Positions 7,976-63,761 are shown, counted from the stretch's first letter. The stretch: DNA of 64,000 nucleotides from an uncultured bacterium (GCA_963843285.1 CAWJJO010000012.1:140399-204398); one strand, 5' to 3'. The notes: generated by a model from the sequence alone, not told the origin. Numbers and translations are program-made.

Positions 7976-8099
7976 GGTTGTGCTTGTGTGATGTTTGCCT
8001 GTCGAAGGGAAAGCAGCAACGTCTGCTACCTACGGGTCGGTCTCGCATTTGACAAGAGAACAAAATTGTTGCCAGATTATATGTCCAAATTATACGAGG

Positions 8100-13305: not shown

Positions 13306-13430
13306 TCTAAAATTTTCTCTTGCGTCCTAATATGGATATCACTATACATCCTCATATTTCAATTCGTACCTTCATTTGTAGCTGTCAATCTTCCGCAAGT
13401 GTTATCATGGAGGCGCATCGAGGGAACAGC

Positions 13431-14942
13431 ATGCAGTTCATGAAGACGAAGGTTTGCATCATTGGTTCGGGAATTGCCGGATGTCTTTGTGCAAAGTTTC
13501 TTTCCCGCAGCACTGACGACATTCTGATCGTGGAGCGCGGCGCTCGTGTCACTCATGAATGGAGAATGAGGACGGGTCGTCACGAAGAGCCTATTCCAAC
13601 CGCCGAACATCACCATTTAGTGAAAGGACCAATCAAGAAAAACATTCAATACGTTTACGCCATGGGAGGGACTACAAATCTTTGGATAGGGCATACTCCC
13701 CGCTTCGTACCCAACGATTTTCGGACGAAAACCATGTACGGAGTCATGGAGGATTGGCCCATCAGTTACGAGGATCTTGAACCTTACTACTGTCTGGCTG
13801 AAGAAGAAATGGCAATCGCGGGAGGGGACGACAATCAAAGAATTCCCCGTTCAAGACCGTATCCTCAGTTACCTCATCCCTTCAGCCCTGCCGATCATTT
13901 TGTTCAACAATGTTTTCCGCCAGGAGATGTTGTTTCGCTTCCCCAGGCCCGTCCTACCGAGACGGTGGGCAATCGCCCCGCCTGCTGCGGGTCGGCAGTT
14001 TGCGAATTGTGTCCGGTCGACGCAAAGTATACCCCCATGAATTCACATGTTCCTGAGCTGGAAATGAACCCGGCAGTCCGTTTCTTGCCCGAAACAGTTG
14101 TACTTTCCCTGGACTCGGATGGGGCGCGGCTGGTAAAGAGCGCGCGGGCGAAAACCGGGGATGGATCAGAAATTACAATTGAAGCCAAGACTTTCGTTCT
14201 GGCAGCAAATGCCGTTGAAAATCCTGCCATTATTCTTCGGAGTTCCGGAATCAAACAACATCCGCTGGTCGGTAGGTACCTGTTTGATCACCCTGTCTTT
14301 GTGCTGACTGCCAGAATCCGTCAGGATGGATTTCCCAATTATGGTTACAGCATTTCAACTGCTGTTTGTTACCATTTTGTGGACGGTGATTTCAGAAAGA
14401 AGCGGGCTTCTGCCCTGGGCCTTGTGAAAAACAATCACAATTTGAATGATTTCGTAAGAGAAATCGCTATCAGTAAACGTTTGCATGGAACGGATTTGCG
14501 CAAACGAGTGGCGTACGAGTTTCGCAATCAAATCGGTCTGACTTTCTTGCTGGACGATATCCCGAATGCCGATAACCTCGTTCAGATCGGAAAAGCTCGC
14601 AATCCTTTGGGGATTCCGCAAACCGAAATCTATTACAACAATCCTTCGCCCTACGCAGACGAGGCGCAACGGCACATTGCTGCTGAAGCCGAACGAATTT
14701 TTGCCCCGCTAAAACTACGAGGGATCGATGCAAACGTTCGCTACTTTGGAGGGCATCTCCTCGGTACCTGTAAAATGGGAAAAGGGGACCAGAGTGTTGT
14801 CGATGCTGACCTTCGCTATCATCCTTACGATAACCTTTTCGTTCTCGGAGGCTCAGCGTTCCCTACGTATTCTGCAGCGAATCCAACTCTGACAATTGCT
14901 GCCCTTGCCGTTCGCCTCGGATCGCATCTAAGAAATGTATAG
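13431..14942 (+). CDS. GMC-family FAD oxidoreductase (paralogue of 47400-48920 and 48920-50434)
   Basis: KVCIIGSGIAGCLCAKFL...ILIVERGA Rossmann motif. The C-terminal NLFVLGGSAFPTYSAANPTLTIAALAVRL is typical of GMC C-terminal domains. Conserved CCGSAVCELCPVDAKY loop. The ATG at 13431 (GAGGGA upstream) matches the N-termini of the paralogues; the ORF track starts at 13320. Confidence 0.85.
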   Translation: MQFMKTKVCIIGSGIAGCLCAKFLSRSTDDILIVERGARVTHEWRMRTGRHEEPIPTAEHHHLVKGPIKKNIQYVYAMGGTTNLWIGHTPRFVPNDFRTKTMYGVMEDWPISYEDLEPYYCLAEEEMAIAGGDDNQRIPRSRPYPQLPHPFSPADHFVQQCFPPGDVVSLPQARPTETVGNRPACCGSAVCELCPVDAKYTPMNSHVPELEMNPAVRFLPETVVLSLDSDGARLVKSARAKTGDGSEITIEAKTFVLAANAVENPAIILRSSGIKQHPLVGRYLFDHPVFVLTARIRQDGFPNYGYSISTAVCYHFVDGDFRKKRASALGLVKNNHNLNDFVREIAISKRLHGTDLRKRVAYEFRNQIGLTFLLDDIPNADNLVQIGKARNPLGIPQTEIYYNNPSPYADEAQRHIAAEAERIFAPLKLRGIDANVRYFGGHLLGTCKMGKGDQSVVDADLRYHPYDNLFVLGGSAFPTYSAANPTLTIAALAVRLGSHLRNV

Positions 14943-37769: not shown

Positions 37770-39288
37770 TTAGCTGTTCAGTATTTGATGCTCAGGTCGG
37801 CCTTTCATCTCGGCGGGAATCGGTACATTGAGAAGCGTCAGGAAGGTTGGAGCAAGATTCAGCAGTGGTACTTCTCCAATATGTCCTGCGCTGCGGATGT
37901 CCGGCCCCATTGCTGCAATAAAACCGAAATCGGAATGTCCGCTGTCCCGAATCGGATCCGGGTTTTGCTTCAGTTGAGCGCGAGGATGCTCCAACGTTTT
38001 CATCAGGTGGCTATGCGGTTTCCACTTCAAAAAAAGATCCGGAAGAATCTCAGGCGCCTGGACGCCAAATAACTGGTCACAAGTGAATAGCGAATGTACC
38101 GGACTCTGGCCAGTCGTGGGATCTAATAGTTTAGAAAACTCGCGTTGCAATTCTTCTATTAAGCCATCATATTCCTCTCGTGTAACGGTTCCCATGGGTT
38201 CACGTCCCTTCAGATTGATTCTTAGCCATCCCTGGTAAAAGGAAGGGGGTGCAAAAACGCTTGCTTTGGTCCAGTCCGTGCCTGCTGAGAATTGTTGCGA
38301 GATGATCCGTTCTCTTGTTTCGCGTGGAAAATGACGGCTGATCCCAATGCGCAACGATTCGGGCAGAATGCGACGCAGAATCGACATCGGATTTAAAGAG
38401 GGAGCACTTGAAGCGGGAAAAGGCTGATAGCCGAGTTCTCTGCAAAAGGATTCTACAAGTCCCGAAGTCGGGTAATGATTCTCCATACCTGCCGTGCTGA
38501 TGATGAATACCGTTGTGTCCGGGGGAAATTGCGCAAGTAATTCGTCGATTTCCTGATCGATCGCCTGGTAAATACTGAGAAGCGCCTTCATCATTTCTGC
38601 GTCTGGAACCTTCGGCGGCTTGCCTGATTCGGGTACATATTTCCAAAACTGATGACCACCGGTGTGCGATTCCCCAAAAGAAGCAACAATGAGATCAAAC
38701 GCGTCGGGTTTCAGCAGGTGTCGAAGTAAAATTCCCTTTTCTCACTCGCTGCATTAACTTACGGTACATCACGACTTCTTGATCGAAATCGTAGTACCAG
38801 TTGATTTCGGTCTTGATTTGAGGTCCGAAGACCCGGCGCACTTCCGAGAGGATTCCTTCCGGTTGCGCGGTCGGACCGAACGCCGGCTCATGAGTTGCCC
38901 AGTTGGAAATTTGAATACCGTCAAGCCCGGGAATCGGATACATTTCCTGCGCATCAACGATGGCTACTCTCTTGTTTTTGCCTCGAAGATGAAACCAGAA
39001 CGGGTTTGCTCTGGCATCTTTCGACGTTTTTAGTTCCAGTTGATATGTTCCCGGTTTCAATTGCCGGAAGTCATAGTAACCAGTCTGGTCGCGAGAAAGG
39101 CCACTCAGCATTGACACCCAGATGCCGTGTTCACTGATCATGTCCGATCCTGCCGTTGTTCCCCATGATCCCTTTTGCATGAAGCGGGAAAGCGTCGGCA
39201 AATGGCCTTCACCAGACCATTTCTGGATCAGACGCGGGTCTCCTGCATCAATTGCCAGGATCACTAAAGGCGTATTTTTTCGGCCCAT
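37770..39288 (-). pseudogene. Type I phosphodiesterase / nucleotide pyrophosphatase family (alkaline phosphatase superfamily) gene split by a 1-nt frameshift at an A4G3 run
   Basis: ORF 38695-39357 (VILAIDAGDPRLIQKWSGEGHLPTLSRF...) ends after MQRVRKGNFTS. Removing one A from the run at 38737-38740 (minus-strand AGAAAAGGG) gives ...RVRKGILLRHLLKPDAFDLIVASFGESHTGGHQFWKY.... This runs into ORF 37770-38594 (MMKALLSIYQAIDQEIDELL...IISTAGM...). The probable start is the ATG at 39288. Confidence 0.65.
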
Positions 39289-39316
39289 GCAATTACATCC
39301 CTTACTCTTTGCGGAC

Positions 39317-40495
39317 TCATGCTTGTTTGTGCAGAACGCGTTCGTAAAGAGCAACAAACCGCTCTACCGATTTATCTTCTGTCAGATGGTTTAATGCAAA
39401 GTCATGCGCCGCCTCACCTATTTGTCCTGCGAGGTCGCGATTGTTGAATGCTTTTAAGATTGCTTCAGCAAGCTGCAGATGGTCTCCGGGCTCAACGAGG
39501 AAGCCCGTGATGCCATCCTTGATGATTTCAGGAAGACCACCAATCCTTGATGCAACGACGACGGTCCCATTCATCATCCCTTCCATCGCTGCGATCGGCA
39601 ATGGCTCCGGCCACACAGAAGGTACAGCCTGGACCCATGCGGGAGCGAAGTGTTCTTGCACTTCATCTGGGGAAATTTGGCCAATGAAAGTAATCGAGGG
39701 ACTTATCTTTAGTTCATCCGCCATCCGTTTCAGTCGTTCCTGATCAGGACCATCTCCAGCAATCAGTAGGTGAGCATTTGAAATTTGATTTTTTACGATT
39801 CCGAAAGCTTGCAGCAATATGTCGCAGCCTTTTTCCTTTACCAGTCGTGCTGCAAAAACCACAAGAGGAGTAATGGACTTCCCTGGTCTTTTCTTTTGCA
39901 ATGCGACTCCGGGCCAGTTTACTTCGGTGGCAGGGACTCCTTCAGCCACAAGCCGGAGGCGAACCGATTCACTTACCGCGACAACCAGATCAAACACTCC
40001 CTGCCACCGGCGTTGCGCTTTCATCTGATACATCAGCGGAATCCAGTCGCGCACCGGAAGACACCCGGTTTGCAAACAAATTCTGCCGGCCGGATAGAAA
40101 CATGTACTCCTGTCTGGAAGCATTTTCGTTCCGAGAGGACAAATCGTTCGATACCAGACAGCGTAATAGATTGCCGGAATGTTTCGCAGCAACCGGAGGA
40201 TGAATGGAGAAAGTTGAGTGAGATAGATATTTGCGTGAACAATATCGGGACGAAACTCCGCGAGCACTCTTTTCAAAGATCGATAAGCCCATGGATTGCA
40301 GGACTGCAAAAGAGTCCGGAAACTCGAAGTCGTCCCAAAGCATTCATAATCCGAAAATGACGCCTGCTTACCCGCCGTGCTTGTAAACAAACGAGCGTCA
40401 TGCCCCCTTTTCCGCAATTCGTCCCGTAATCCCAGAAACTGCTTTTCCGCGCCCCCTCCGGGCGGAGGATTATCGTGAAGCAATAGAATTTTCAT
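39317..40495 (-). CDS. GT4-family (GT-B fold) glycosyltransferase
   Basis: MKILLLHDNPPPGGGAEKQ N-terminus. C-terminal EX7E motif (EPLPIAAMEGMMNGTVVVASRIGGLPEII..GITGFLV). Confidence 0.85.
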   Translation of the reverse strand: MKILLLHDNPPPGGGAEKQFLGLRDELRKRGHDARLFTSTAGKQASFSDYECFGTTSSFRTLLQSCNPWAYRSLKRVLAEFRPDIVHANIYLTQLSPFILRLLRNIPAIYYAVWYRTICPLGTKMLPDRSTCFYPAGRICLQTGCLPVRDWIPLMYQMKAQRRWQGVFDLVVAVSESVRLRLVAEGVPATEVNWPGVALQKKRPGKSITPLVVFAARLVKEKGCDILLQAFGIVKNQISNAHLLIAGDGPDQERLKRMADELKISPSITFIGQISPDEVQEHFAPAWVQAVPSVWPEPLPIAAMEGMMNGTVVVASRIGGLPEIIKDGITGFLVEPGDHLQLAEAILKAFNNRDLAGQIGEAAHDFALNHLTEDKSVERFVALYERVLHKQA

Positions 40496-47399: not shown

Positions 47400-48920
47400 T
47401 TAAACTCCTCCCAGGTAGTCGGCAAGGCGAATAGCCAGAGCAGCAATCGTCAAAGTTGGGTTGGCAGGGGAGTATGTCGGAAAAGCAGATCCACCCAGAA
47501 TGAACAGGTTGTCGAGCAGATGATACCGGAGAGACGGATCAACTACTCCATTCTTTTCGTCACCCATACGGCACGTTCCCAAAAGATGACCGGCGACCGT
47601 ACCTGGCTTCACTTTGGGTATCACCTTTTTAGGGCCGAGGCTCGACAGCAATTTTGGCATCTCATTCACAATGTTCTGCTTGCAGCTTTCGAGATAGAAG
47701 GAGAAAGGAGGATTGTATACCTCTGAAAGAGGAATCCCCAATTGATTGCGCTTCCTGCCGATCCGAATGTGCCGGTGTGGGTTCGGAATGTCATCCAGGA
47801 GAAAATTTATGCTTACCTGTTGTCGAAATCGATTTGTCGTTTCCTCTCGCAACCGTTTGCCGCTCAGACCTGTTTCGAGAGCAACCAAAGGATTTATATC
47901 GTGTACAGGCAGTCCCGGAATGTTCATGACATCTCCGAGAGCGCCTGCCCTTTTATCGCGAAAGCCTCCGTCGTAGAAGTAATAGCAATTAGCGGTAAAG
48001 AAACTATTTCCGTAATATGGGAACCCGTCTTTCGATATTAACGTAGAGACAATCAAAACCGGGTGATCAAACAAATATTTACCGGTTAAAGAATGCTGTG
48101 GAAACACGCCACTTCGAAGTAGGATGGCTGGATTTTCCAAAGCATTTGCGGCCAAAACAAACAGGTCTGCTTCGATAACGACTTCGCGTCCATCCCCTTT
48201 TTTGGCCAGAGCGGAATGTACGGTTCTTCCTGAACTCTTCAGTTCGAGAACGACAGTCTCGGTTTGAATTCGAACGTTGGAAAGCGCTTCCAGTTGGGGA
48301 ATATGAGTGTTCAACGGAGTGTATTTAGAATCCACCGGACACAGATAACATCGCGCTGAGCCGCAGCACGCCGGTCGATTGTTGACGTCCTGCGTGGGAC
48401 GAGCCTGGGGACATGCCACAACCGATCCGGTTGGAAGACATTGCTTTACAAGTAAATCTACGGGGCTGAACGGATGAGGAGGCAGGGGGTAAGGTCTCGA
48501 TCGCGGAGTCCGTGGATTGTCGGAAGCGCCCGCAATGGCCAATTCTTCTTCTGCCAGAGAGTAAAAGGGCTCCAGATCTTCGTAAGAAATCGGCCAATCA
48601 TCCATGATTCCATACAGGGATTTCATTCTAAAGTCATTCGGAATGAGCCGTGGAGACTGACCTGTCCAGTGATTGACTGTTCCGCCTAAAGCGTAAAGAT
48701 ATGAGAATTTATCTTGCCTGCCATCTACAACGTTGTGATGATGCTCCGCGGTCGGCACGGCCTTCTCATGCTTCCCGGTTCGCATGGACCAATCATGGCT
48801 GACCGATGCCCCTCTTTCCACAATAAGAATATCGTCCAACTTCTTCGCAAGATATTTGGCACAAAGACATCCTGCAATGCCCGAACCGACAATGCACACC
48901 TTCGTTTTGATTCTGTCCAT
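47400..48920 (-). CDS. GMC-family FAD oxidoreductase (tandem copy 2)
   Basis: 506 aa. KVCIVGSGIAGCLCAKYL, CCGSARCYLCPVDSKY, NLFILGGSAFPTYSPANPTLTIAALAIRL. The start overlaps the upstream stop (TAATG). Confidence 0.85.
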   Translation of the reverse strand: MDRIKTKVCIVGSGIAGCLCAKYLAKKLDDILIVERGASVSHDWSMRTGKHEKAVPTAEHHHNVVDGRQDKFSYLYALGGTVNHWTGQSPRLIPNDFRMKSLYGIMDDWPISYEDLEPFYSLAEEELAIAGASDNPRTPRSRPYPLPPHPFSPVDLLVKQCLPTGSVVACPQARPTQDVNNRPACCGSARCYLCPVDSKYTPLNTHIPQLEALSNVRIQTETVVLELKSSGRTVHSALAKKGDGREVVIEADLFVLAANALENPAILLRSGVFPQHSLTGKYLFDHPVLIVSTLISKDGFPYYGNSFFTANCYYFYDGGFRDKRAGALGDVMNIPGLPVHDINPLVALETGLSGKRLREETTNRFRQQVSINFLLDDIPNPHRHIRIGRKRNQLGIPLSEVYNPPFSFYLESCKQNIVNEMPKLLSSLGPKKVIPKVKPGTVAGHLLGTCRMGDEKNGVVDPSLRYHLLDNLFILGGSAFPTYSPANPTLTIAALAIRLADYLGGV

Positions 48921-50434
48921 TATGCCAGATGGGATGCCAGGCGTATGGCCAGAGCCGCAATCGTCAGTGTTGGATTGGCCGGCGAGTATGTGGGAAAGGC
49001 AGATCCACCCAGGATGAACAAATTATCGACCGGATGATATCTGAGGGATGTATCAACTACCCCATGCCTTTCATCGCTCATACGGCAAGTACCCAACAAA
49101 TGACCGGCACCCGCTCCTTTCTTCATATTGGGAATCACTTTCTTCGGACCTAAGCTTGATAGAAGCTTTGGTATCTCTTGAATGATCTGGTTCTTGCCAT
49201 TTTCGAGATACTGTGAAAAAGGAGAATTATATATTTCTGTTTCTGGAATCCCTAATCGATTGCGTTTCTTGCTGATCCGGATCAGGCGATTCGGATCAGG
49301 TATGTCATCAAGCAAGAATGCAAGACTTACCTGTTTTCGAAATCGATTTGCTGTTTCTTCTCGCAACCGTTTGCCGCTCAGGCTTGTTTCGACTGCCACC
49401 AAAGCAGCCATGTCAAAGGGAGGCAAACCGGGAGTGTTCATGATATCTCCGAGCGCGCCTGCCCTTTGATTGCGAAACGTTCCATCGTAGAAATAGTAAC
49501 AGCTGGCTGTAATGAAACTATTACCGTAATAGGGGAATCCATCTTTTGATATCAACGTAGAAACAATCAAGACCGGGTGATCAAATAAAAATCTGCCGGT
49601 TAAAGGATGCTGGGGAAGCTGACTGCTGCGTAAAAGGATGGCAGGATTTTCAAGAGCGTTTGCGGCCAAAACAAACAGGTCGGCTTCAATGACCAATTCG
49701 CGGCCATCTCCTTTCTTTGCGACGGCAGATTGGACCTTCTTCCCGGAGCTCTTCAATTCAAGAACGACCGTCTCGGTCAGGATTCTCACATTGGAAAGCG
49801 CTTCCAGCTGGGGAACATGAGTATTCAACGGTGTGTATTTGGAATCCACCGGGCACCGGGAACAGGTGGCCGAGCCGCAGCAGGCTGGTCGAAGATTCAC
49901 GTCTTGAGTGGGACGTGCCTGAGGGGAGGCAACCACCGAACCAGCAGGGAAACATTGCTTTGCCAGTAGATCCGCGGGGCTAAAAGGATGAGGAGGCAGG
50001 GGGTAAGGCTTCGATCGCGGGGACCAGGGATTGTCTGAAGCCCCCGCAATGGCCAATTCTTCTTCCGCAAGACAGTAAAAGGGCTCCAGATCGTCGTAAG
50101 AAATGGGCCAGTCGTCCATAATTCCATACAGGGACCGCATTTTGAAATCATTGGGCAGGAACCGAGGTGACTGGCCAGTCCAGTGATTGGTTGTTCCGCC
50201 AAGTGTGTAGAGATAGGCAAATTGGTCTTGACGTCCTTCTGCAACGATATGATGGTGCTGCGCAGTCGGCACAGCTTTCTCATGGTGCCCAGTTTGCATG
50301 GTCCATTCATGGCTGACCGATGCTCCCCTTTCAACAATGAGAATATCGTCTACTTTCTTCGCAAGAAACTTGGCACAGAGGCATCCTGCAATTCCAGAGC
50401 CGACAATGCACACCTTTGTCTTGATTTTGTCCAC
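48920..50434 (-). CDS. GMC-family FAD oxidoreductase (tandem copy 1)
   Basis: 504 aa, collinear with 47400-48920 and highly similar by eye. CCGSATCSRCPVDSKY. Confidence 0.85.
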   Translation of the reverse strand: MDKIKTKVCIVGSGIAGCLCAKFLAKKVDDILIVERGASVSHEWTMQTGHHEKAVPTAQHHHIVAEGRQDQFAYLYTLGGTTNHWTGQSPRFLPNDFKMRSLYGIMDDWPISYDDLEPFYCLAEEELAIAGASDNPWSPRSKPYPLPPHPFSPADLLAKQCFPAGSVVASPQARPTQDVNLRPACCGSATCSRCPVDSKYTPLNTHVPQLEALSNVRILTETVVLELKSSGKKVQSAVAKKGDGRELVIEADLFVLAANALENPAILLRSSQLPQHPLTGRFLFDHPVLIVSTLISKDGFPYYGNSFITASCYYFYDGTFRNQRAGALGDIMNTPGLPPFDMAALVAVETSLSGKRLREETANRFRKQVSLAFLLDDIPDPNRLIRISKKRNRLGIPETEIYNSPFSQYLENGKNQIIQEIPKLLSSLGPKKVIPNMKKGAGAGHLLGTCRMSDERHGVVDTSLRYHPVDNLFILGGSAFPTYSPANPTLTIAALAIRLASHLA

Positions 50435-50453
50435 GCGGATCCTTGATTGTTCG

Positions 50454-50891
50454 TCACTGTTTGGAGGGTCGAATCAATCCATCACAAGCGGGATCATCCC
50501 CAACAATAGGATAATCGATGTACGCCCACGCGATACTGCGGTGGGAAAATACTCTCCAGCTCCAATAATTGATTACCCGAAATTCTATTCGGCGAGGAAT
50601 CAGGACACGGAGTCCCCAATCCACCAGAGTAAAGAAACCCACTGTTGCCAAAAACCAGGTCGTGTGTTCTCGTTTCAGGAGTTCCAATTCTTCTTGAATG
50701 ATTTGCCTCGTCTTATCCTCAAGCGCAAAAAACTCCTGGATCGATTTTGCCGTGGCATTGCGCCGATAGAACCAGGCAACCGATCCGAAAATCGCGCCTA
50801 AAACAATCACGATAAATAATCTGCGGGTGACTTTTCCTTTTCCGGTAGTTTTCGGCAGGGATTGCATTTGGATCTGGTCCTTATCGATCAT
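50454..50891 (-). CDS. Small protein with a twin-arginine-like signal. Candidate small subunit or escort for the downstream GMC flavoproteins.
   Basis: 145 aa. KVTRRLFIVIVLGAIFGSVAWFYRRNATAKS combines T-R-R-x-F, a hydrophobic core and an A-x-A site (ATA). It has a second hydrophobic segment, TWFLATVGFFTLVDWGLRVLI. It lies 19 nt upstream of the GMC pair. Confidence 0.45.
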   Translation of the reverse strand: MIDKDQIQMQSLPKTTGKGKVTRRLFIVIVLGAIFGSVAWFYRRNATAKSIQEFFALEDKTRQIIQEELELLKREHTTWFLATVGFFTLVDWGLRVLIPRRIEFRVINYWSWRVFSHRSIAWAYIDYPIVGDDPACDGLIRPSKQ

Positions 50892-50940: not shown

Positions 50941-52422
50941 CTATTTGTTTCTCGATTTTCCGCCGATAGTCCTTTTGGGCCCCACGATCCGAAGAACGAT
51001 GCTTGTGAATTCCTGAGCTTGAAATAGCCGCGAAGCAACCGCCGGCGTATTCGAACCCTGTGTGATGATTGTGTTGGCTAACAACGGAACTACTACTGAA
51101 TCCGTACGAAAAAGTTCCTGGATCCGATAACCAGCCGCCAGTAATTGTACCTGTTCATCAAGATCGTGGCTGTAGAAACTATGAAGTACGATGATGTCAT
51201 CGGATCTGTAGACTCGATGAGGAACATAACGAAATACCTTACTCCCGGTGTAGTAAGATTCCTTGAATTGATCATTCGAAAAGACGCGGGAACCGGGAAG
51301 ATTGGATCGAATATACTCTCCCGTGCGTCTGATGTCGCCGAATGTATCTCTCTGATAGTAGAGAGCCACCATCGCAAAAAGGACGGAACCTGTTATGGAT
51401 GCTGCGATCAGGACTTTCGATAGAAACTTTGGCGCACGATCTGCAAACCGCTCGATTCCGGCGGCGACTTCCACAAACAGCAGAGTCATGGGAAATGTCA
51501 GAAAACGGGTAGTCCAGGCCCAGTGGACTGAGAATAAGGCAAGAAAACCGCAATGCACGTAAGTGACCAGCAGGAGCCACACTCTACGTTTGGATGTGAA
51601 TCCCCGAAACTGGTTATAAACCGCAAAAAGAAATAAAGGGCAAAAAACCAAATACGGATAAACCCACACGTAGGTCCAGGAATTTCTCAGTAATCTCCCA
51701 GGGCTCAATGAATGAACACTCCTCAGCATGTCATTTCCGTAACTGGACCCGCCTTGATAGATCATCCATGCGCCGAGGAACCAGAGTAATAAAGGTGCTA
51801 TCGAGAGAACCAGGGGTCTTGTCCGTCTCAGATGTACGGCCCTGTAGATTCCAAAAATACATAATGGTGCAAATACAAGTGCTTCGGGACGAGTTAAGGT
51901 TGCAAGTCCGGAGAAAAGGATCAGCCACAGTAAGGAATCCGTATCCGAATCGGAAAACAGACGGAATGCATGTAGAATCGTGGCCAGTGAGAAAGCCAGA
52001 AATAATGGTTCACTCAGAACCCGGGTTGTCAGGAAAAGAATCTGTGCGGAGATCGTAAAGAGAATGGAAGCCAGGAGCGCCTCGCGTCGTCCATAAACTT
52101 CCAGGCACAGGCTATACAGCGGGAAAAGGCAAAAGAATCCGGCAAAAGTCGAAATCAATCGACCTGAAACAATGGGATCGAGAAACCATGCTGGAAGTCG
52201 AATCAGCAGTGGATAAACAGGCAAATGTTTGCTGGATACATGATAGAAACCATCTGCGCTCAGGCTGAAGGACCAATTGATAAAAGCATACCCATCGGTA
52301 AATTCGGCCTGGTTGTAGTTCAGCAACAGTAAGCGCGATGCAAGAAAAAGGGCACAGATCAAATAAAAAGGGAGCACGCTCTGTTTTGAAATACCATCTT
52401 GTTGCTGGATCACGTGGTGCAT
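50941..52422 (-). CDS. GT-C fold membrane glycosyltransferase (PMT_2/ArnT-like)
   Basis: 493 aa. NQAEFTDGYAFINW...KHLPVYPLLIRL. About 11 TM segments plus a C-terminal soluble domain of about 130 aa. Confidence 0.55.
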   Translation of the reverse strand: MHHVIQQQDGISKQSVLPFYLICALFLASRLLLLNYNQAEFTDGYAFINWSFSLSADGFYHVSSKHLPVYPLLIRLPAWFLDPIVSGRLISTFAGFFCLFPLYSLCLEVYGRREALLASILFTISAQILFLTTRVLSEPLFLAFSLATILHAFRLFSDSDTDSLLWLILFSGLATLTRPEALVFAPLCIFGIYRAVHLRRTRPLVLSIAPLLLWFLGAWMIYQGGSSYGNDMLRSVHSLSPGRLLRNSWTYVWVYPYLVFCPLFLFAVYNQFRGFTSKRRVWLLLVTYVHCGFLALFSVHWAWTTRFLTFPMTLLFVEVAAGIERFADRAPKFLSKVLIAASITGSVLFAMVALYYQRDTFGDIRRTGEYIRSNLPGSRVFSNDQFKESYYTGSKVFRYVPHRVYRSDDIIVLHSFYSHDLDEQVQLLAAGYRIQELFRTDSVVVPLLANTIITQGSNTPAVASRLFQAQEFTSIVLRIVGPKRTIGGKSRNK

Positions 52423-56833: not shown

Positions 56834-57721
56834 ATGGAAAAATATCCACCTACGTTTTCGGTTATTGTTCCCACCTATGGAAGGCATAGACAATTAGGCT
56901 CGTGCCTTCAGGCTTTGGCACAGCTCGACTACCCCCGCGAATTCTTTGAGGTAATTATCGTTGATGACGGCAGCGAAATTTCGGCCGAATCGAGCCTCGA
57001 GTCGTTTCGAGACAAAATTGATATTCAATTTGTCAGACAGGATCATGCCGGGCCCGCAACCGCGCGAAACAGGGGCGCGCAACATGCGAAAAAGGAATTT
57101 CTCGCCTTTACCGATGACGACTGTGCGCCTGCGTCTGATTGGTTGAGGAAGCTGGCCTCCCGCTTTCAAGAGTTACCGGATCATGGCATCGGAGGGCGAA
57201 TTCTGAATTCACTTACGAAGAACCTTTATTCTTCCGCCGGCCAATTGCTGACCGATTACCTGTACGCTTATTACCATGATTCCACAGGGAATGTTCGTTT
57301 CTTCGCATCCAATAACCTCGCTTTTCCTGCGAAACGATTCCGGGAAATTGGCGGCTTTGACCAGAGTTTCCCTTTGCCGGCAGCCGAGGATCGCGAGTTG
57401 TGTGACCGTTGGCTCCGCAAGGGTTACAGTTTGACGTATGCGCCGGATGTTGTCGTTTATCATAGCCATGATCTAACGTTTCGGACTTTTTGGAGGCAAC
57501 ACTTCAATTACGGGCGCGGCGCTTTGTTCTTTCAGCAAATCCGGCCGGAACCAACTCGCGTCGAGCCATTATCGTTTTATCTGAAGTTGCTGCAATATCC
57601 TTTTCGCCAATCCAGCAGGCATGGATTGATGCTTTCGGCATTGCTGGCTCTTTCGCAAGTAGCTAACGCAACCGGTTTTTTTTGGGAGAAGAAATCTGGA
57701 AGGAACCCCGGACGCGGATGA
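56834..57721 (+). CDS. GT2 glycosyltransferase (paralogue of 53968-54864)
   Basis: FSVIVPTYGRHRQL, IVDDGSE, AGPATARNRG, LAFTDDDCAPASDWL, AEDRELCDRW. Collinear with 53968-54864. Confidence 0.85.
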   Translation: MEKYPPTFSVIVPTYGRHRQLGSCLQALAQLDYPREFFEVIIVDDGSEISAESSLESFRDKIDIQFVRQDHAGPATARNRGAQHAKKEFLAFTDDDCAPASDWLRKLASRFQELPDHGIGGRILNSLTKNLYSSAGQLLTDYLYAYYHDSTGNVRFFASNNLAFPAKRFREIGGFDQSFPLPAAEDRELCDRWLRKGYSLTYAPDVVVYHSHDLTFRTFWRQHFNYGRGALFFQQIRPEPTRVEPLSFYLKLLQYPFRQSSRHGLMLSALLALSQVANATGFFWEKKSGRNPGRG

Positions 57722-57747
57722 AAGGTGGAGGGCATCCGTCCATCACA

Positions 57748-59322
57748 TTACGCATGAAAATTGGAGCTCAAAATATAATCGCAGGCTCGTAAGGCAAGAG
57801 CCATCGTAGTCAGGGTGGGGTTCTGAAAACTGATCGTGGGAAAACAGGAGGAATCAACAACAAATAGGTTGGGAATCTCCCACATCTGATTGTGTCCATT
57901 GAGCACAGATTCTTTTTCGGTTCGCCCCATCCGCACTCCACCGCTTTCATGAATGGCACTTCCAGGCACCGGGCGATCACTAATGATTCCGGTACGGCGA
58001 ACGAAAGCGGAAAGCATGCGAATCGGCAGCGGCAAGAATTCGCGTGATCTGGAAAATCCTGCTGCATCCGCAAGTTCTTGCATAGTCCGGACAGCATCCG
58101 CACACAAAGCTTTTTCATTCTCTGAATACGAGCATTCAATGTGCGCCGCGGGTATTCCCCACCTATCTTTTACCTTCCGGTTCAACGTAACCCGGTTCTC
58201 TTTTTTCGGCAGCATTTCACCGACCGCTGCAAGTGACCAGAACATTCCGGCTCGCCCCAGAGATCCCTGAATCCCGTAGGTACCCCGGAAACCGCCATCC
58301 TCAAACTGGCGTTTTCTGATTCGTGGCAGGTACACCCCCATATCCGAGGAGAGATTAAACCAATTCGGAGCTATGTGACTGCTTTCAGTCGTGGATCCAA
58401 TTTGCCAAACGCTGATATGATCCATGACGTAACAACCGAGAACTCCGGATGAATTTCCCAGTCCGCCTGGATGCTTTCCTGAAGAAAAGTTTAGCAAAAT
58501 CCGGATCGTTTCAATCGTGGACGCACAACAGACTACAACGTCGCTATAGAAATTGAGGCGTGTACCGGCAAGGCAGTCAACGCAGGATACGCCTACTGCG
58601 CGCTTTTCTTCCGGATCCATCAGTATGGAATCGACCGCCATGGATGGCCTCAACTCCGCGCGTCCGGTTTCGAGGGCGCTCTGCAGCATAGGAGATACCG
58701 GACCGCAAGGATAACCCAGAACCCGGATTGGAATCACAACTCTACCGGGCCACTTTTTCTCAACAGAAACCTTAAAATGATGTTCTGTTGGAGTAATCTC
58801 ATGATTTCTTACGTAGTGTCCATCCGGCAATCCATCGATGCCGTCTTTTTGGCCTTCCAGCATCAAGAATTCTTCGATGCGACCGTAATGGGTCTCAAGA
58901 TCGCTATAGGAAATCGGCCAGGCTGCGCCGTCTTCCGCTTCGTATTGAAAGTCTTCCGGCGCGAATCTGAGAGCGAGTCGTCCCCAGGTATGACCTCTGC
59001 CGCCTACCTGTCTGCCACGGAACCATCGAAATGGCTTCTCTTTCGGGAATGTGTACGGGTTTTGCCTTTCATCGACATAGAAGTGTTGCGTTGCGGAATT
59101 CAATACGGCGGCGCTGGCGATTCGCCGATGGCCACCCAAAAGGAAGCCTGCCCGCTGGACAATGCCGTCTTTTGGAGTTCGAACAAAGTCGGCTTCCTTC
59201 ATCACCGGGCCAGCCTCCAGAATCAATACACGAAGCCCTCCTTCCGATAAACCTTTGGCCATCCATTCTCCATTCAATCCGGCTCCAATTACGATTGCGT
59301 CGTAGTGATTGTGTTTATTCAT
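57748..59322 (-). CDS. GMC-family FAD oxidoreductase (divergent fourth copy)
   Basis: 524 aa. YDAIVIGAGLNGEWMAKGL..VLILEAGP. C-terminal NLFVVDSSCFPTISFQNPTLTTMALALRA. The start overlaps the upstream GT2 gene by 8 nt. Confidence 0.85.
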   Translation of the reverse strand: MNKHNHYDAIVIGAGLNGEWMAKGLSEGGLRVLILEAGPVMKEADFVRTPKDGIVQRAGFLLGGHRRIASAAVLNSATQHFYVDERQNPYTFPKEKPFRWFRGRQVGGRGHTWGRLALRFAPEDFQYEAEDGAAWPISYSDLETHYGRIEEFLMLEGQKDGIDGLPDGHYVRNHEITPTEHHFKVSVEKKWPGRVVIPIRVLGYPCGPVSPMLQSALETGRAELRPSMAVDSILMDPEEKRAVGVSCVDCLAGTRLNFYSDVVVCCASTIETIRILLNFSSGKHPGGLGNSSGVLGCYVMDHISVWQIGSTTESSHIAPNWFNLSSDMGVYLPRIRKRQFEDGGFRGTYGIQGSLGRAGMFWSLAAVGEMLPKKENRVTLNRKVKDRWGIPAAHIECSYSENEKALCADAVRTMQELADAAGFSRSREFLPLPIRMLSAFVRRTGIISDRPVPGSAIHESGGVRMGRTEKESVLNGHNQMWEIPNLFVVDSSCFPTISFQNPTLTTMALALRACDYILSSNFHA

Positions 59323-60250
59323 TGATTGGACCTACAGAACTTAGTTGAGCTTGAATTCTTCTCCCCTGCTCCAGATCAAAAATCCTGAATTTTGCAAGAC
59401 TCCATTTCTGCAGACGATAACTCAAAGAAACTCTAAGTACTCCGAAGCCGTATTTCACGCTTCGCTTAAAACTGATGCTGCTGGCCTCTTTATGATACTT
59501 TGCCGGACAACTTACTTCTCCAATTTCATACCCGGCGTATGCAATCTGGGCCAATATTTCGTTATCAAACACAAAGTCATCCGAGTTTTCTTCCAGCGGA
59601 AGCTTTAAGAGAATCTCTTTGTCAAAAGCCCTGTACCCTGTGTGGTATTCGGCCAGCTTCTGGTTCAACAGGATGTTTTGAAAAAGGGTGAGCAGCCGAT
59701 TCGATACATACTTGTAAAACGGCATGCCTCCTTTTAATGCACCCTTTCCGAGGATTCTAGATCCCAACATTGCGGCAAATAGGCCTCGGACAACCGGATA
59801 CACCATGGCCTCCATTAACAATGGAGTATATTGATAATCCGGGTGCAACATGACTACAATGTCTGCTCCTGCTGCTAAAGCTTCGCGGTAACAGGTTTTC
59901 TGGTTGCCACCATAACCCCGGTTCTTTTCGTGACGGATTATTTTTTGTATCCCAAGCTTTTTTGCCAGCTCCACCGTGTCATCGAGAGAGAAATCATCCA
60001 CCAGTATGATTTCGTCCACAATATCAAACGGAATCTGTCGATAGGTAAGTTCCAGAGTTCTTTCGGCGTTGTAGGCCGGCATCACAACGATGATTTTCTT
60101 TCCCTCAATCATTGAAAAATATGCTCGATCGATTGCTTTTCCACCAGACAAGATAACAACAAATAGACCGACAAGCCGTTCAACAAGTTTCTGCACCGCA
60201 AAACGTCTGTCACAGCGAAACCTTGCTTCAGAATACCACTGAATACGCAT
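59315..60250 (-). CDS. GT2 glycosyltransferase, DPM1/GtrB-like
   Basis: KIIVVMPAYNAERTL, LVDDFSLDDT, NRGYGGNQK, VMLHPDYQYTP. The core domain starts at MIEGKK (60112). The longer ORF from 60250 adds a possible N-terminal hydrophobic segment. Confidence 0.8.
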   Translation of the reverse strand: MRIQWYSEARFRCDRRFAVQKLVERLVGLFVVILSGGKAIDRAYFSMIEGKKIIVVMPAYNAERTLELTYRQIPFDIVDEIILVDDFSLDDTVELAKKLGIQKIIRHEKNRGYGGNQKTCYREALAAGADIVVMLHPDYQYTPLLMEAMVYPVVRGLFAAMLGSRILGKGALKGGMPFYKYVSNRLLTLFQNILLNQKLAEYHTGYRAFDKEILLKLPLEENSDDFVFDNEILAQIAYAGYEIGEVSCPAKYHKEASSISFKRSVKYGFGVLRVSLSYRLQKWSLAKFRIFDLEQGRRIQAQLSSVGPINE

Positions 60251-60304
60251 CGGTCTTCATCGGGACTTCATATTCACCAGGCACTCCTGGTGTAGTATTA
60301 ACAC

Positions 60305-61219
60305 ATGCCGAAGACAAGAATTGCACTCCTGATTCCCTGTTACAACGAGGAAATCACGATCGGCGAAGTGGTGCAAAGTTTCCGGAATCAGTTGCCCGAT
60401 GCAGCCGTGTACGTGTTTGATAACAACTCTTCGGATGGCACCATGGAAAGAGCGACGGAAGCGGGGGCCACCGTGCTGCTGGAGCGCAGACAGGGAAAGG
60501 GATACGTGGTTCAATCGATGTTCCGGCTGGTGGAAGCTGATGTTTATGTCATGGTAGATGGCGATGGAACATATCCGGCAGAAGCTGTGCACAAAATTCT
60601 CGCGCCCGTATTGAGCGGAGAAGCGGACATGGTTGTTGGATCGCGGCTCCACCCGGAATCACAAAGCCAATTCAAGACGCTCAACCGCTTCGGCAATCGT
60701 TGTATCACAACGCTATTGCGCCGCATCTTCCATGTGAAGCTCACAGACATCCTTTCCGGCTATCGCGCATTTAACCGCGATTTCGTTAAAGGAATTCCGC
60801 TGTTTGGCGGAGGTTTTGAGATCGAAACAGAGCTGACCATCAAAGCGCTCGAACGCGGCTACCGGATGGTTGAAGTGCCGATCGATCTGACATCGCGTCC
60901 TGCAGGCTCACAATCTAAAATTCGTTTGGTACGCGATGGGTTTCTGATTCTCAACACGATCCTGGCTTTTTTTCGCGATTACAAACCGCTCACCTTTTTT
61001 GGTTTCACCGGTCTGGCTCTTGCGATCACAGGAATTGTGCTGAGTGTGTTTTTTTCCACGTCCGCGTTGTACCTGGCGCTTGTGCTTTCGGGTTTGCTTC
61101 TGATGATTGCCGGACTGATCCTGCATACAATCGTGCGACGCTTCCAGGAGCTCGATCACCAGATCCGGGTCCAAAAACCACCGCTATTGTCTCAGGAAAC
61201 GGACCGAAACAAACGATAA
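60305..61219 (+). CDS. GT2 polyprenyl-phosphate glycosyltransferase (GtrB/ArnC-like) with two C-terminal TM helices
   Basis: IALLIPCYNEEITI, VFDNNSSDGT, VMVDGDGTYPA, LSGYRAF, then the TM segments LTFFGFTGLALAITGIVLSVFF and LYLALVLSGLLLMIAGLIL. Confidence 0.85.
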   Translation: MPKTRIALLIPCYNEEITIGEVVQSFRNQLPDAAVYVFDNNSSDGTMERATEAGATVLLERRQGKGYVVQSMFRLVEADVYVMVDGDGTYPAEAVHKILAPVLSGEADMVVGSRLHPESQSQFKTLNRFGNRCITTLLRRIFHVKLTDILSGYRAFNRDFVKGIPLFGGGFEIETELTIKALERGYRMVEVPIDLTSRPAGSQSKIRLVRDGFLILNTILAFFRDYKPLTFFGFTGLALAITGIVLSVFFSTSALYLALVLSGLLLMIAGLILHTIVRRFQELDHQIRVQKPPLLSQETDRNKR

Positions 61220-62047
61220 TCCCAGGTTGCGGCGATCCGCCTTTGATTTGATCGGTACAAAAGTTTGCGAACGGATTAACAGACTGTGAATTTCTGGAAT
61301 CTCCTTCCCGTCAACCTGAAAATGATACTCACCTGCCTCACTCTTCAGCAAAGTTGCAGCAGTTGTGCCATTTATAATCAATTCCGGGTTTCCGCCGCCC
61401 GCCGGAAATCTTTTGATCGTTGACAGGATCAGCGTCGTGTCCTTTCCTTCCGTGTGAAACGTAAAGTCAGTGATCTCACTGGCCCCTGTAGTCCACCGCC
61501 ACCCCCTTTCCTGCGAATAGAAGTTCAGAAATGTCACATCCTGATCATCAAAACGAATTCCACTCTTTTCAGGCGGGGCTTCCTTCTCAGAGATCCGATA
61601 AACATCCAGATTCATGGAACTGTTTTGGGGGGGATCAGGAAACGAATCTTGATTTACCTTAGGAATATACACAAAGGAAATGTGAAAACCTGTTCGTTTT
61701 TCGACACGAAAAATCCTCTGCGACTTCAACGCTGTGAGACTGGAAGGGTCCAGGATCGCAAAAAGAGGTCTTCGTTGACGCTTCAAATAGGAATCAACGA
61801 TCGCTTTGAATCGGGGAGATAGTTGCCGATCAAAAGGCAATAGTAGCACATCGCGATCTAGAAAATACTGAAGCGGCGTCTCCAGGTGAATCCCTGCATA
61901 ATTATCGGCAACCAGAAGTAGCGCATTCGCCGGGACATGATCGTCCAGAGTCTTCGTCTGCGCAAGTACATCTTTATATAGCCGCTGCGCCAGTAGATCG
62001 TAAGAGTTAGTAATAAAGACGCACGCAATCGCACCAACAAAAATCAC
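61184..62047 (-). CDS. Soluble (probably extracytoplasmic) domain protein. Likely the C-terminal part of the 62007-63761 membrane protein, or a separate overlapping gene.
   Basis: 287 aa from a GTG start. The short N-terminal hydrophobic stretch IFVGAIACVFI becomes a full TM segment (IDFLFVIFVGAIACVFI) only if the frame is extended upstream, where it meets a stop at about 62099. Confidence 0.45.
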   Translation of the reverse strand: MIFVGAIACVFITNSYDLLAQRLYKDVLAQTKTLDDHVPANALLLVADNYAGIHLETPLQYFLDRDVLLLPFDRQLSPRFKAIVDSYLKRQRRPLFAILDPSSLTALKSQRIFRVEKRTGFHISFVYIPKVNQDSFPDPPQNSSMNLDVYRISEKEAPPEKSGIRFDDQDVTFLNFYSQERGWRWTTGASEITDFTFHTEGKDTTLILSTIKRFPAGGGNPELIINGTTAATLLKSEAGEYHFQVDGKEIPEIHSLLIRSQTFVPIKSKADRRNLGLSFVSVRFLRQ

Positions 62048-63761
62048 GAAAAGAAAATCGATCGTGTTCCCGAATTGGAACGCGGTGCATCTTGCCCGTT
62101 AGACTAATTGCGTGCACTTTCGTCGCCGGCGGGCTGAAAGCGCGAGCTCCATTTGCCCGCGGTCCGAATCGAATCAGAGCCTGGCGCCAGCCGCTGACAC
62201 CAAAAAGGAACAGCAGCGGAAACACAACCGGAACAAATCTGCGGATCGTCCAAGGCTGATACTGAAATACGATCAGCGGAAAGATCAGGAGTGAGATCAA
62301 GTGTACCGGCAAAAACAGAAAAGCGCTCCGGGCAGGAAGGGAATCACTTTGCAGATAAAGGAACAGAACAGCCCCTATGAGCAAAAGCCCGAGGACTGCA
62401 GGAGAGGTGTAAAGAGAGAGCCAGCCGGTGTGCTGAAAGATGTCCGTCCAGTGAAAGCGCCGACGAAATAAAGACGACATCATCACGGCGATCGTCAAAA
62501 TACAAATGAGAATTCGTAAGCCACGTTTCCTCTCCACTGCACTCATGAGAACACTCGAGAGCGGGACTAGAAGAGCATATAGCGCCATCAGGAGCAGTCC
62601 TCCGATCCAGCGTTGCTGCAACAAGAAAGAGCCGAACTGCCGCAGCGACTCCGCCCAAACTTTCGTCACATTCTTATGTCCAAAGAAGGTCCCGACATAC
62701 AGGTATTCCTGGACCGTAAGCTGTTGGTACAGCGCCAGGAATCCACACGCGACCAGACAAACAAACAGCGTCCGCCATCTGGAAAGATTTTCTGCCAGAG
62801 GGCGCAGCATCGCAAAAACAAGCACCAGGCACAACGATCCATAAAAAAGCGAAAGGACGTGGCAGAGAAAAGTGGAGCCCCAGAGCATACCCACTACGAG
62901 CTGGTGTCCATGCTGCATCGTGCCGTCCGCACGCAATCCGCTGACAAAAACCCACAGACCGCTCAGAAATAGTGCTTGACCCAACCCCTCCGAGGTTGGC
63001 ATCCGCAAGAAATAAATCTCCGGATAAAAGCACAGAAAAAGCAGGGGTAAGGCGATGCCGGTTAACAGACCGCCGAATCTCCTCCCCAGCAGAAAAATCG
63101 CGGTCAAGCTCAGGATATAAAAGAAGGTGAGCAGAAGGAGAAATTGCTGTTGGCCCAGAATGGGAATCGCTGCCCCAAGCCAGACAGGAAACATGTGATA
63201 GAAGCCAAAAGTAACAGTCCCTTTGGAAACATCGATAAGCCTCACCCCACCTGGAAATCGCGCATCGACTCCCGTGGTGTCAAGCTTGAAACGGTTAAAA
63301 AACAAGCTCTTCCGTTCATTCTGACTCATCTCAAGAACAAGTGGATCGGTATAGAAAAGTCCTCCTGATTTGGCAATCTGTCCGGCGGTTGAAAGATAGA
63401 CCGATGCGTCATCGCCCTGCAAAAATGCTTCATACGGCGGACATAGTCTTGAAAATGCCATGACGGAGAAACCAATTGCAAGACAAAAAAGGATGTAGGA
63501 GACGGAGACACGTCTTTTCACGATCAGAAGCGACAGGAAGACAAGCAGAGCCGACGCAATGGCCACGGGCCTGAGGTAGCCGAAAAAGGCAAGAAGAAAA
63601 AAAATCAAAGAGCAAAGCCCAACTCCGGCAACAAAAATCTGAAACAGATCGGCAAAGGAGAGTTTCTTAGATTCGGATATTGTTGGAAACAAGAGGTGGA
63701 AAAACCACCCGGCGAGGCCGATGAAGAGAATAAAACCGATCAGTTTTAATTCATTGATCAA
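62007..63761 (-). CDS. Polytopic membrane protein, GT-C-like
   Basis: 584 aa. The loop is PPYEAFLQGDDASVYLSTAGQIAKSGGLFYTDP. About 13 TM segments. The last roughly 45 residues (..HRVPIREHDRFSFRDFCWCDCVRLYY) look non-native. Confidence 0.5.
   Translation of the reverse strand: MINELKLIGFILFIGLAGWFFHLLFPTISESKKLSFADLFQIFVAGVGLCSLIFFLLAFFGYLRPVAIASALLVFLSLLIVKRRVSVSYILFCLAIGFSVMAFSRLCPPYEAFLQGDDASVYLSTAGQIAKSGGLFYTDPLVLEMSQNERKSLFFNRFKLDTTGVDARFPGGVRLIDVSKGTVTFGFYHMFPVWLGAAIPILGQQQFLLLLTFFYILSLTAIFLLGRRFGGLLTGIALPLLFLCFYPEIYFLRMPTSEGLGQALFLSGLWVFVSGLRADGTMQHGHQLVVGMLWGSTFLCHVLSLFYGSLCLVLVFAMLRPLAENLSRWRTLFVCLVACGFLALYQQLTVQEYLYVGTFFGHKNVTKVWAESLRQFGSFLLQQRWIGGLLLMALYALLVPLSSVLMSAVERKRGLRILICILTIAVMMSSLFRRRFHWTDIFQHTGWLSLYTSPAVLGLLLIGAVLFLYLQSDSLPARSAFLFLPVHLISLLIFPLIVFQYQPWTIRRFVPVVFPLLFLFGVSGWRQALIRFGPRANGARAFSPPATKVHAISLTGKMHRVPIREHDRFSFRDFCWCDCVRLYY

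Follow-up and report, generated by a model that had tools for sequence, protein, structure and literature searches.

The window analysed here, a 64-kb stretch of DNA from an uncultured bacterium whose closest genome contigs are labelled Acidobacteriota, encodes about 42 genes, two of which, a GMC-type flavoenzyme (GMC 57748) and a family 2 glycosyltransferase (GT2a), adjoin each other on the minus strand with a short overlap. GMC 57748 is an intact flavin adenine dinucleotide (FAD) oxidoreductase, and we give roughly even chances to its being a sugar oxidoreductase of the cytoplasm that has been drawn into the synthesis of an envelope glycan, an intermediate of which it would convert to a keto- or aldehyde-sugar form. 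The GT2a-GMC pair is restricted to a narrow lineage, and the finding amounts to a plausible hypothesis on a lineage-restricted gene pair. The elements of the pair are as follows:

57748-59322, minus strand: GMC FAD oxidoreductase (subfamily A), 524 aa, intact
59315-60112, minus strand: GT2a, most likely extent, soluble GT-A-fold family 2 glycosyltransferase, 265 aa (PF00535, 2.4e-17)
59315-59322, minus strand: GT2a/GMC overlap of 8 nt, ATGAATAA, with the GMC start codon within the last GT2a codons

A preliminary description of this DNA had placed a GMC oxidoreductase at 57748-59322, an assignment borne out by Pfam matches to GMC_oxred_C (2.1e-25, 90.3 bits against a cut-off of 24.6) and GMC_oxred_N (7.6e-6, 26.3 bits against a cut-off of 23), with DAO and FAD_binding_2 matches covering residues 8-40. 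The GxGxxG motif at residues 11-16 is intact (VIGAGLNG, residues 11-18), G13, G15 and G18 are invariant in a 26-sequence alignment, and H458 (AIHESGG) is invariant in the family alignment, the consensus of which keeps QNPTLT; we take the H458 and QNPTLT positions to be the catalytic pair of GMC enzymes. The AlphaFold2 (AF2) model (pLDDT 86) finds its best fold match in the fructose dehydrogenase large subunit (TM-score 0.77). All of its top Foldseek matches are sugar-oxidizing GMCs (TM-score 0.68-0.77), with the fructose dehydrogenase large subunit and the alpha subunit of FAD-glucose dehydrogenase (FAD-GDH) coming first, followed by pyranose 2-oxidases and glycoside 3-oxidase, in agreement with the sugar-oxidizing kind of GMC that had been proposed.

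GMC 57748 displays neither a signal peptide nor a transmembrane segment, the CCx4Cx2-3C cysteine motif is absent from it, and a hidden Markov model built from the small subunits of 17 relatives matches no open reading frame (ORF) of the window. Across 80 genome loci of relatives with 30-40% identity, in which Gluconate_2-dh3 makes up 19 of 62 same-strand neighbours, the nearest 25 are devoid of this small subunit and 17 more distant ones possess it; the neighbours of those 25 are mixed, including TIM barrels, sugar transporters, aldo-keto reductases, DegT aminotransferases and GT2s. The lack of a signal peptide, transmembrane segment, small subunit and cysteine cluster, together with the likewise subunit-less nearest relatives, suggests that the enzyme probably stays in the cytoplasm.

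We infer the biosynthetic role and the substrate class of GMC 57748 from its fold and from the genomic context of its relatives. Polysaccharide-biosynthesis clusters hold four of the five nearest outside relatives examined (42-44% identity), the polysaccharide-type loci being L086/L087 (P0004), L255, L256 and L257. In P0004 (43%), which also has a GT4 nearby, a DegT aminotransferase gene runs 4 nt into the start of the GMC gene, suggesting an oxidize-then-transaminate route to an amino sugar. The neighbours of P0013 encode a GT4 and an AMP-binding protein, those of P0019 encode WecG, Wzz and fragments of epimerases, and those of P0010 encode a Gfo/Idh/MocA enzyme and an epimerase of the short-chain dehydrogenase/reductase (SDR) type, P0010 being the sole relative with an adjacent SDR. 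These clusters and the DegT overlap make a biosynthetic keto- or aldehyde-sugar step plausible. The fold and catalytic histidine of GMC 57748 match those of GMCs that turn the hydroxyl of a sugar into a keto or aldehyde function, and the enzyme most likely carries out such an oxidation on a biosynthetic intermediate of the glycan, for which a nucleotide sugar, a glycolipid and a lipid-linked sugar are all candidates. GT2a would be a lineage-specific neighbour, drawn from an otherwise stand-alone soluble GT-A family resembling polyprenyl-phosphate sugar synthases, and the two genes would form a module inside a large, fast-rearranging envelope-glycan locus.

Several observations weigh against this role, including (i) the absence of any keto-sugar-using enzyme, either an aminotransferase or an SDR, from the 41 window genes covered by our domain scans; (ii) the mixed and partly catabolic surroundings of the 35-40% relatives, with five xylose-isomerase-like TIM barrels plus sugar transporters, and C-glycoside deglycosidase beta subunits (n = 2); (iii) the 50% relative P0003, which adjoins a radical-SAM/SPASM gene with no glycosyltransferase nearby; (iv) the distance to the biochemically characterized relatives, all at or below about 25% identity; (v) the close relationship of all the genomes that keep the pair; and (vi) the survival, by count, of about half of the gene adjacencies between the window and its relative L003, so that retention of the pair is weak evidence. 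The same scans detected no epimerase and no cytochrome c domain, and the earlier remark that the window contains no DprE2-like SDR holds among the genes scanned.

The setting of the pair is dominated by glycosyltransferases. Six GT2 enzymes and one GT4 are encoded in the window, together with at least seven proteins that match GT87, PMT_2 or Mannosyl_trans4 weakly and about ten further unannotated polytopic membrane proteins; glycosyltransferases or GT-C-like polytopic proteins make up more than half of its genes. Four sulfatase/phosphodiesterase-type proteins (with 4-5 predicted N-terminal transmembrane segments in genes 23978, 34057 and 35935, and one in 26650), two GDSL hydrolases, one Wzx-like flippase and four GMCs are also present. 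The region looks like a very large GT-C-based envelope-glycan locus, and it rearranges fast. Between 10459 and 56651, at least 17 polytopic proteins with 6-13 predicted transmembrane segments each are encoded at an exceptional density, only some of them with weak GT87, PMT_2, Mannosyl_trans4 or Wzy_C/DUF6798 matches. Related DNA occurs in metagenomes of freshwater sediment, soil and cave; the sequencing runs with related sequence resemble DNA metagenomes and contain at most 20% of the sampled words.

GT2a and GMC are adjacent in all close GMC relatives with a readable junction (74-94% GMC identity), and contigs of the sequencing runs X2 and X3 also cross the junction; a metagenome scan for close relatives of GMC 57748 returned one locus only, L174. 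The two genes stay adjacent across four flanking arrangements, whichever of them comes first:

Window: GT2c (divergent), then GT2a followed by GMC with an 8-nt overlap
L001: GT87-like gene (divergent), then GT2a followed by GMC with an 8-nt overlap
L174 and run X3: 584-aa transmembrane protein, 287-aa protein, GT2a, 99-nt spacer, GMC, on one strand in L174
L003-5 (74% GMC identity): PMT_2-like GT-C gene followed by GMC with a 4-nt overlap, then 67 nt and GT2a

The survey of pairing covered the 80 loci of 30-40% GMC relatives and 80 loci of 61-76% GT2a relatives. None of the former contains a GT2a homologue within 6 kb of the GMC gene, and in none of the latter, all genome loci, does a GMC lie within 5 kb of GT2a; neither of the two closest outside GT2a relatives (83-87%), which display the order GT2a-TerC-acetate kinase, has a GMC beside it. 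Conservation of the pairing in relatives, on which the preliminary description had staked its proposal, is thus largely wanting (0/80 GMC and 0/80 GT2a loci), and the pair is lineage-restricted, not a conserved system. In the GT2a tree, the window copy groups with the GMC-less P0122-P0126 to the exclusion of the L003 copy (bootstrap 100/100), the GMC-linked GT2a genes being not monophyletic. The swapped gene order and the tree are compatible with two independent juxtapositions, or with loss of the pairing in intermediate lineages.

The junction, read directly as ...CCA ATC AAT GAA TAA with the GMC ATG inside, confirms the 8-nt overlap that the preliminary description had reported, though not the coupling that it had read into it. 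In L174, a 92% relative, GT2a ends at the family-usual ...RIQV-stop, and 99 nt separate it from GMC. The window and L001 (94% relative) alone have in common a deletion of about 100 nt that removes this stop, and GT2a consequently reads ten codons further, into the GMC start. The overlap is derived, from a recent deletion, and does not represent conserved coupling. Because of this origin and of the confinement of the pairing to a narrow lineage, oxidation of a lipid-linked sugar stays at the level of a hypothesis. A promoter and terminator scan of 57500-60500 returned sites no more frequent than in shuffled sequence.

Adjacency to a glycosyltransferase is, in addition, common in this locus. With six GT2s among about 42 genes, a random window gene has, as estimated from the gene map, a chance of about 23% of a GT2 neighbour; by this estimate, a GMC beside a glycosyltransferase is near chance expectation, and a glycosyltransferase neighbour of any kind is near certain. 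The GMCs beside the GT87-like gene 12070-13305 and the GT-C gene 50941-52422, cited earlier as further examples, are indeed present.

Two further sets of loci touch on the pairing. The contig L002 (1-1290; binned as Anaerolineales) preserves only residues 289-524 of the GMC, its C-terminal 236 residues, joined to unrelated DNA and followed by orthologues of GT2b, GT-C 54861 and GT2d; either the gene is truncated or the contig is chimeric or mis-binned, which is the probable explanation and makes L002 uninformative. Separately, distant (30-34%) GMCs of the subfamily-B type described below, in Mesorhizobium and Caulobacter (L181-L183, L186, L190, L191), lie close to GT2 ORFs, which in most cases immediately follow the GMC gene, a pairing unrelated to that of GT2a and GMC.

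The longest GT2a ORF spans 59315-60250 on the minus strand, the extent originally proposed. The PF00535 assignment and the motifs then quoted stand (VVMPAYNAE, VDDFSLDDT and LHPDYQYTP), and the start requires correction. All 23 GT2a homologues compared (247-285 aa) align from M47 (MIEGKK, position 60112), so that the gene most likely occupies 59315-60112, its start being almost certainly M47 and not 60250. Three of the 23 possess N-terminal extensions of their own, unrelated to each other or to that of the window, and the extension up to 60250 is probably not translated. A start at 60112 leaves 192 nt, instead of 54 nt, to the divergent gene at 60305.

No transmembrane or other hydrophobic segment is found in GT2a by hydropathy, and its AF2 model (pLDDT 85) displays a C-terminal amphipathic helix. 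By sequence, the nearest solved protein is the dolichyl-phosphate-mannose synthase of P. furiosus (PfDPMS; 9e-10 with the single sequence), which the family profile matches at 1.5e-12, versus 4e-4 for glucosyl-3-phosphoglycerate synthase (GpgS). Comparison of folds places GpgS, ArnC and dolichyl-phosphate-mannose synthase at the same distance from GT2a (TM-score 0.64-0.68), and the top Foldseek matches are glucosyl-3-phosphoglycerate synthases (E ~1e-11). The best NCBIfam matches all lie below their cut-offs, namely AglJ (62 bits versus 325), PpgS (41.5 versus 370) and dolichyl-phosphate hexose transferase (34.7 versus 375).

The residue roles reported for PfDPMS, comprising metal ligands that include D91 and Q93, the acceptor-phosphate ligands R117, R131 and S135, and K178 (PMC5526996), were mapped onto GT2a by pairwise alignment. 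The metal motif, HPDYQY versus DADLQH, keeps the equivalents of D91 and Q93 and replaces D89 by His and H94 by Tyr. At the acceptor-phosphate positions, Arg is retained at R117, and Lys, Asn and Val replace R131, S135 and K178, respectively; the Arg, Lys and Asn are invariant in the GT2a family. As the acceptor residues are partial, a transmembrane helix is lacking and GpgS is equally close by fold, 'DPM1-like' is the best available label for GT2a, not a demonstrated membership, and the 'DPM1/GtrB-like' of the preliminary description survives insofar as the closest solved sequence is a dolichyl-phosphate-mannose synthase.

GT2a is 70-78% identical to Bacteroidota proteins such as that of Cytophaga hutchinsonii, the gene of which sits amid ribosomal and Fe-S genes. 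The family (about 250 aa, soluble, with HPDYQY), to which no source gives a functional name, has about one third of its columns invariant and extends at 60-78% identity across Acidobacteriota, Bacteroidota, Eisenbacteria, KSB1, Nitrospirae, Planctomycetota and Desulfuromonadota (loci L092-L171). Its neighbours are scattered (PMT_2 in 3/72, GtrA in 2/72), and no homologue of the window GT-C genes lies within 5 kb in the 80 genome loci of 61-76% GT2a relatives. Judged from these alignments and neighbourhoods, the family is a strongly constrained, mostly stand-alone enzyme.

The genes flanking the pair include two further GT2 enzymes and two same-strand genes upstream:

60305-61219, plus strand: GT2c, divergent AglJ/GtrB-type GT2 with two C-terminal transmembrane helices
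56834-57721, plus strand: GT2b, convergent downstream neighbour, EpsD/MftF-like GT2 (PF00535, 3e-25)
61184-63761, minus strand: two upstream genes on the strand of the pair, encoding proteins of 584 aa (62007-63761) and 287 aa (61184-62047)

GT2c, which had been overlooked, fits the GtrB/AglJ type that the preliminary description had assigned to GT2a better than GT2a itself does. It scores 233 bits against TIGR04182 (AglJ) and 1.6e-28 against the dolichyl-phosphate hexose transferase model, both below the curated cut-offs and much above GT2a, and its sequence makes it the best candidate of the locus for a polyprenyl-phosphate hexose synthase. The GT2c segment (60118-61180, about 1.05 kb) is a strain-level presence/absence polymorphism: it is present in the strain of run X2, as in the window, and absent from run X1, run X3 contigs and L174, which join 60117/60134 to 61180/61183. 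In the strains devoid of GT2c, the genes of the 584-aa protein, with 13 predicted hydrophobic segments, and the 287-aa protein run straight into GT2a-GMC (L174 and the X3 contig); neither protein has a Pfam match. GT2b, which occupies the same position in L174 and L002, reaches 160 bits with MftF (cut-off 280) and 152 bits with EpsD, both below cut-off.

The proposal of the preliminary description, which we regard as possible but unlikely, is that GT2a forms a polyprenyl-phosphate sugar on the cytoplasmic side of the membrane and that GMC 57748 oxidizes this lipid-linked sugar to a keto-sugar; direct use of the keto-sugar by a GT-C enzyme, or its reduction elsewhere to the epimer, would carry the same tentative standing. 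The relationship of GT2a to dolichyl-phosphate-mannose synthase in sequence, the conserved equivalents of D91, Q93 and R117, with Lys for R131, the identity of its best NCBIfam matches (AglJ, PpgS and dolichyl-phosphate hexose transferase) and its amphipathic helix would suit such a role, as would the order GT-C, GMC, GT2a in L003, which is the predicted three-gene set, the many GT-C-like genes of the window, which require lipid-linked donors, and the SDR adjoining P0010. Against these stand the lack of the pairing in all 160 genome loci surveyed for the two families, and likewise in the GT2a relatives at 83-87% identity, the rarity of GT-C genes beside GT2a-family members (PMT_2 3/72, GtrA 2/72), the missing transmembrane domain, the substitutions of S135 (Asn), K178 (Val) and D89 (His), and the equal closeness of GpgS, ArnC and dolichyl-phosphate-mannose synthase by fold. 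With neither an SDR nor an aminotransferase among the 41 genes, an epimerization would have no second half in the window, where a reductase is absent. Literature searches for GMC enzymes with polyprenyl or undecaprenyl phosphate (sugars), or with DprE1, returned nothing relevant, which also counts against the proposal.

It appears doubtful that the product of GT2a is a small, soluble glycoside like those formed by GpgS or MpgS, and equally so that GMC 57748 oxidizes this product or another free sugar or glycoside after the fashion of glycoside 3-oxidases and pyranose oxidases, the position in a glycan locus being an accident of rearrangement. Such a role would accord with the glucosyl-3-phosphoglycerate synthases at the top of the Foldseek matches (E ~1e-11), with the solubility of GT2a and its housekeeping contexts elsewhere (TerC with acetate kinase, ribosomal protein genes), with the sugar transporters, TIM-barrel enzymes and C-glycoside deglycosidase subunits that often adjoin the 35-40% GMC relatives, and with the quick rearrangement of the locus. 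The family profile, however, ranks dolichyl-phosphate-mannose synthase (1.5e-12) far above GpgS (4e-4), the pair survives four rearrangements within glycan loci, the nearest GMC relatives lie in biosynthetic and not catabolic clusters, and no transporter or deglycosidase gene is found near the pair in the window.

The preliminary description had also treated the GMCs of the window as one set, which pools two unrelated subfamilies: GMCs 13320, 47400 and 48920, here subfamily B, are 24-25% identical to GMC 57748 and 58-81% identical to each other. They are arranged as follows:

47400-50891, minus strand: subfamily-B operon, comprising the small subunit (50454-50891), then GMC 48920-50434 and GMC 47400-48920
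13320-14942, plus strand: third subfamily-B GMC, divergent from the GT87-like gene 12070-13305

The paralogues 47400 and 48920 are 81% identical, and GMC 13320 is 58-59% identical to both from residue 38 on, its true start probably being M38 (13431); the divergent layout of GMC 13320 and the GT87-like gene is kept in L003. All three align with FAD-GDH alpha along their entire length (1.5e-58) and contain a CCx4Cx2C motif at residues 185-194, which, as in 6a2u, would provide the ligands of a 3Fe-4S cluster. The only small ORF of this type in the window, 50454-50891 (145 aa), lies between the GT-C gene 50941-52422 and GMC 48920, has a twin-arginine-like N-terminus (TRRLFI) and a homologue (1.9e-21) in the 128-aa ORF (SRRAFL) that lies upstream of the gene of a 56% relative; searched against PDB and Pfam, the 145-aa protein gave no match. 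A genome scan with the subfamily-B profile recovered only relatives at or below 35%, of the ordinary FAD-GDH type and with no GT-C neighbours. By its full-length FAD-GDH match, cysteine motif and twin-arginine-like subunit, subfamily B looks like an Fe-S-containing flavoprotein dehydrogenase exported by twin-arginine translocation (TAT), encoded among GT-C genes.

A broader version of the lipid-linked proposal brings both subfamilies together, and each of its parts strikes us as improbable: (i) the two kinds of GMC would supply oxidized or epimerized polyprenyl-phosphate sugars to the GT-C enzymes of the locus, or oxidize the nascent glycan for them; (ii) the cytoplasmic GMC would be coupled to GT2a, and the subfamily-B enzyme, with its Fe-S-type motif, would act with its small subunit, probably as a TAT-exported enzyme; and (iii) the whole would amount to a DprE1-like step that arose anew, on the GMC fold, in bacteria other than Actinobacteria.

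That GT2a and GMC 57748 are functionally unlinked, with a neutral adjacency and overlap and a non-glycan redox role for the GMC, for instance as an MftG-like cofactor dehydrogenase, seems very improbable. The chance of about 23% of a GT2 neighbour and the recent deletion behind the overlap would fit this, together with the radical-SAM/SPASM gene adjoining P0003 and the weak NCBIfam scores against MftG for GMC 57748 (62 bits) and against MftF for GT2b (160 bits); on the other side, the two genes remain neighbours in either order and across four flanking contexts, and the nearest GMC relatives lie in polysaccharide clusters. A mycofactocin system as such is rejected, the MftG and MftF scores falling far under their cut-offs (387 and 280 bits, respectively) and mftA-E, like any radical-SAM or other mft gene, being absent from the window genes scanned.

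Three observations concern the locus at large. A Phosphodiest-family gene at 37770-39357 (minus strand) is interrupted near 38737/38738 by a frameshift that leaves two ORFs (in tblastn frames -2 and -3), its L003 counterpart being a single 507-aa ORF; the split gene is either a pseudogene or an assembly error. At 4291-10228, two more GT2 genes, 6716-7975, with about five C-terminal transmembrane segments, and 7995-8846, are bordered by genes for a DUF362 protein and for two flavoproteins of the amine-oxidase type (5331-6638 and 8777-10228), forming a second site of the window at which FAD enzymes adjoin glycosyltransferases. Finally, the 74% relatives carry an IS200-type Y1 transposase within their counterpart of this glycan locus (L003/L004/L005, ~6369-6971), which fits the heavy shuffling of gene order among these genomes.

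Known routes to unusual lipid-linked sugar donors employ VAO-fold enzymes (DprE1), SDRs and Gfo/Idh/MocA enzymes. If the envelope-glycan role of GMC 57748 is true, a GMC flavoenzyme inside such a pathway would constitute a new enzyme class for bacterial glycan diversification and would give a handle on the little-studied cell envelopes of Acidobacteriota; oxidation of a polyprenyl-phosphate sugar by a GMC, if true, would likewise be new. Two by-products may be of wider use: the GT2a family, conserved across phyla (70-78%), and the subfamily-B GMCs with a new small TAT-type subunit among GT-C genes.

Among known systems, DprE1, which has a VAO fold, oxidizes decaprenyl-phosphate-ribose in an FAD-dependent manner, and DprE2 completes the epimerization to decaprenyl-phosphate-arabinose. 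The proposed logic would be alike, an oxidized lipid-linked sugar feeding GT-C enzymes in a locus with many GT-C-like genes; the likeness is one of concept only, since the fold differs (VAO versus GMC) and a DprE2-like SDR is absent from the window. In aminoglycoside biosynthesis, GMC oxidases oxidize a sugar hydroxyl and an aminotransferase uses the resulting carbonyl. One of these enzymes, the 6'''-hydroxyparomomycin C oxidase (7dve), matches GMC 57748 at 3e-9. The DegT overlap in P0004 (43%) is similar to this arrangement, whereas the window itself is devoid of an aminotransferase; the aminoglycoside enzymes serve a secondary metabolite, and the product here would be an envelope glycan.

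Human DPM1 also lacks transmembrane helices, though it is a bona fide family member. Compared with dolichyl-phosphate-mannose synthase, GtrB and ArnC (5mlz; PMC5526996; 9asc), GT2a preserves the GT-A fold, with PfDPMS as the closest solved sequence, but differs by the absence of a transmembrane domain, by HPDYQY in place of DADLQH and by having no regular GT-C partner. For GMC 57748, the flavoprotein subunits of two membrane-bound enzymes, the FAD-glucose dehydrogenase of Burkholderia cepacia (6a2u/8grj) and the fructose dehydrogenase of Gluconobacter japonicus (7w2j/8jej), provide both the best PDB sequence match (1.8e-21) and the best fold match (TM-score 0.75-0.77), with the GMC architecture and sugar substrates in common; these enzymes are only 21-23% identical to it and, unlike it, comprise a 3Fe-4S cysteine cluster, a TAT-signal small subunit and a cytochrome c partner. 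Subfamily B resembles these enzymes far more (1.5e-58, CCx4Cx2C, small subunit) than GMC 57748 does. The glycoside 3-oxidases (PsG3Ox, 7qf8/7qfd) and pyranose 2-oxidases are stand-alone, subunit-less GMCs that oxidize glycosides at C2/C3 (POx/CGOx sequence space, PMC10646112, PMC10807413), matching GMC 57748 at 5e-12 over the C-terminal catalytic segment only and with a TM-score of about 0.7; C-glycoside deglycosidase subunits lie beside some 35-40% GMC relatives, and a deglycosidase gene is absent from the window, where the context would be biosynthetic, not catabolic.

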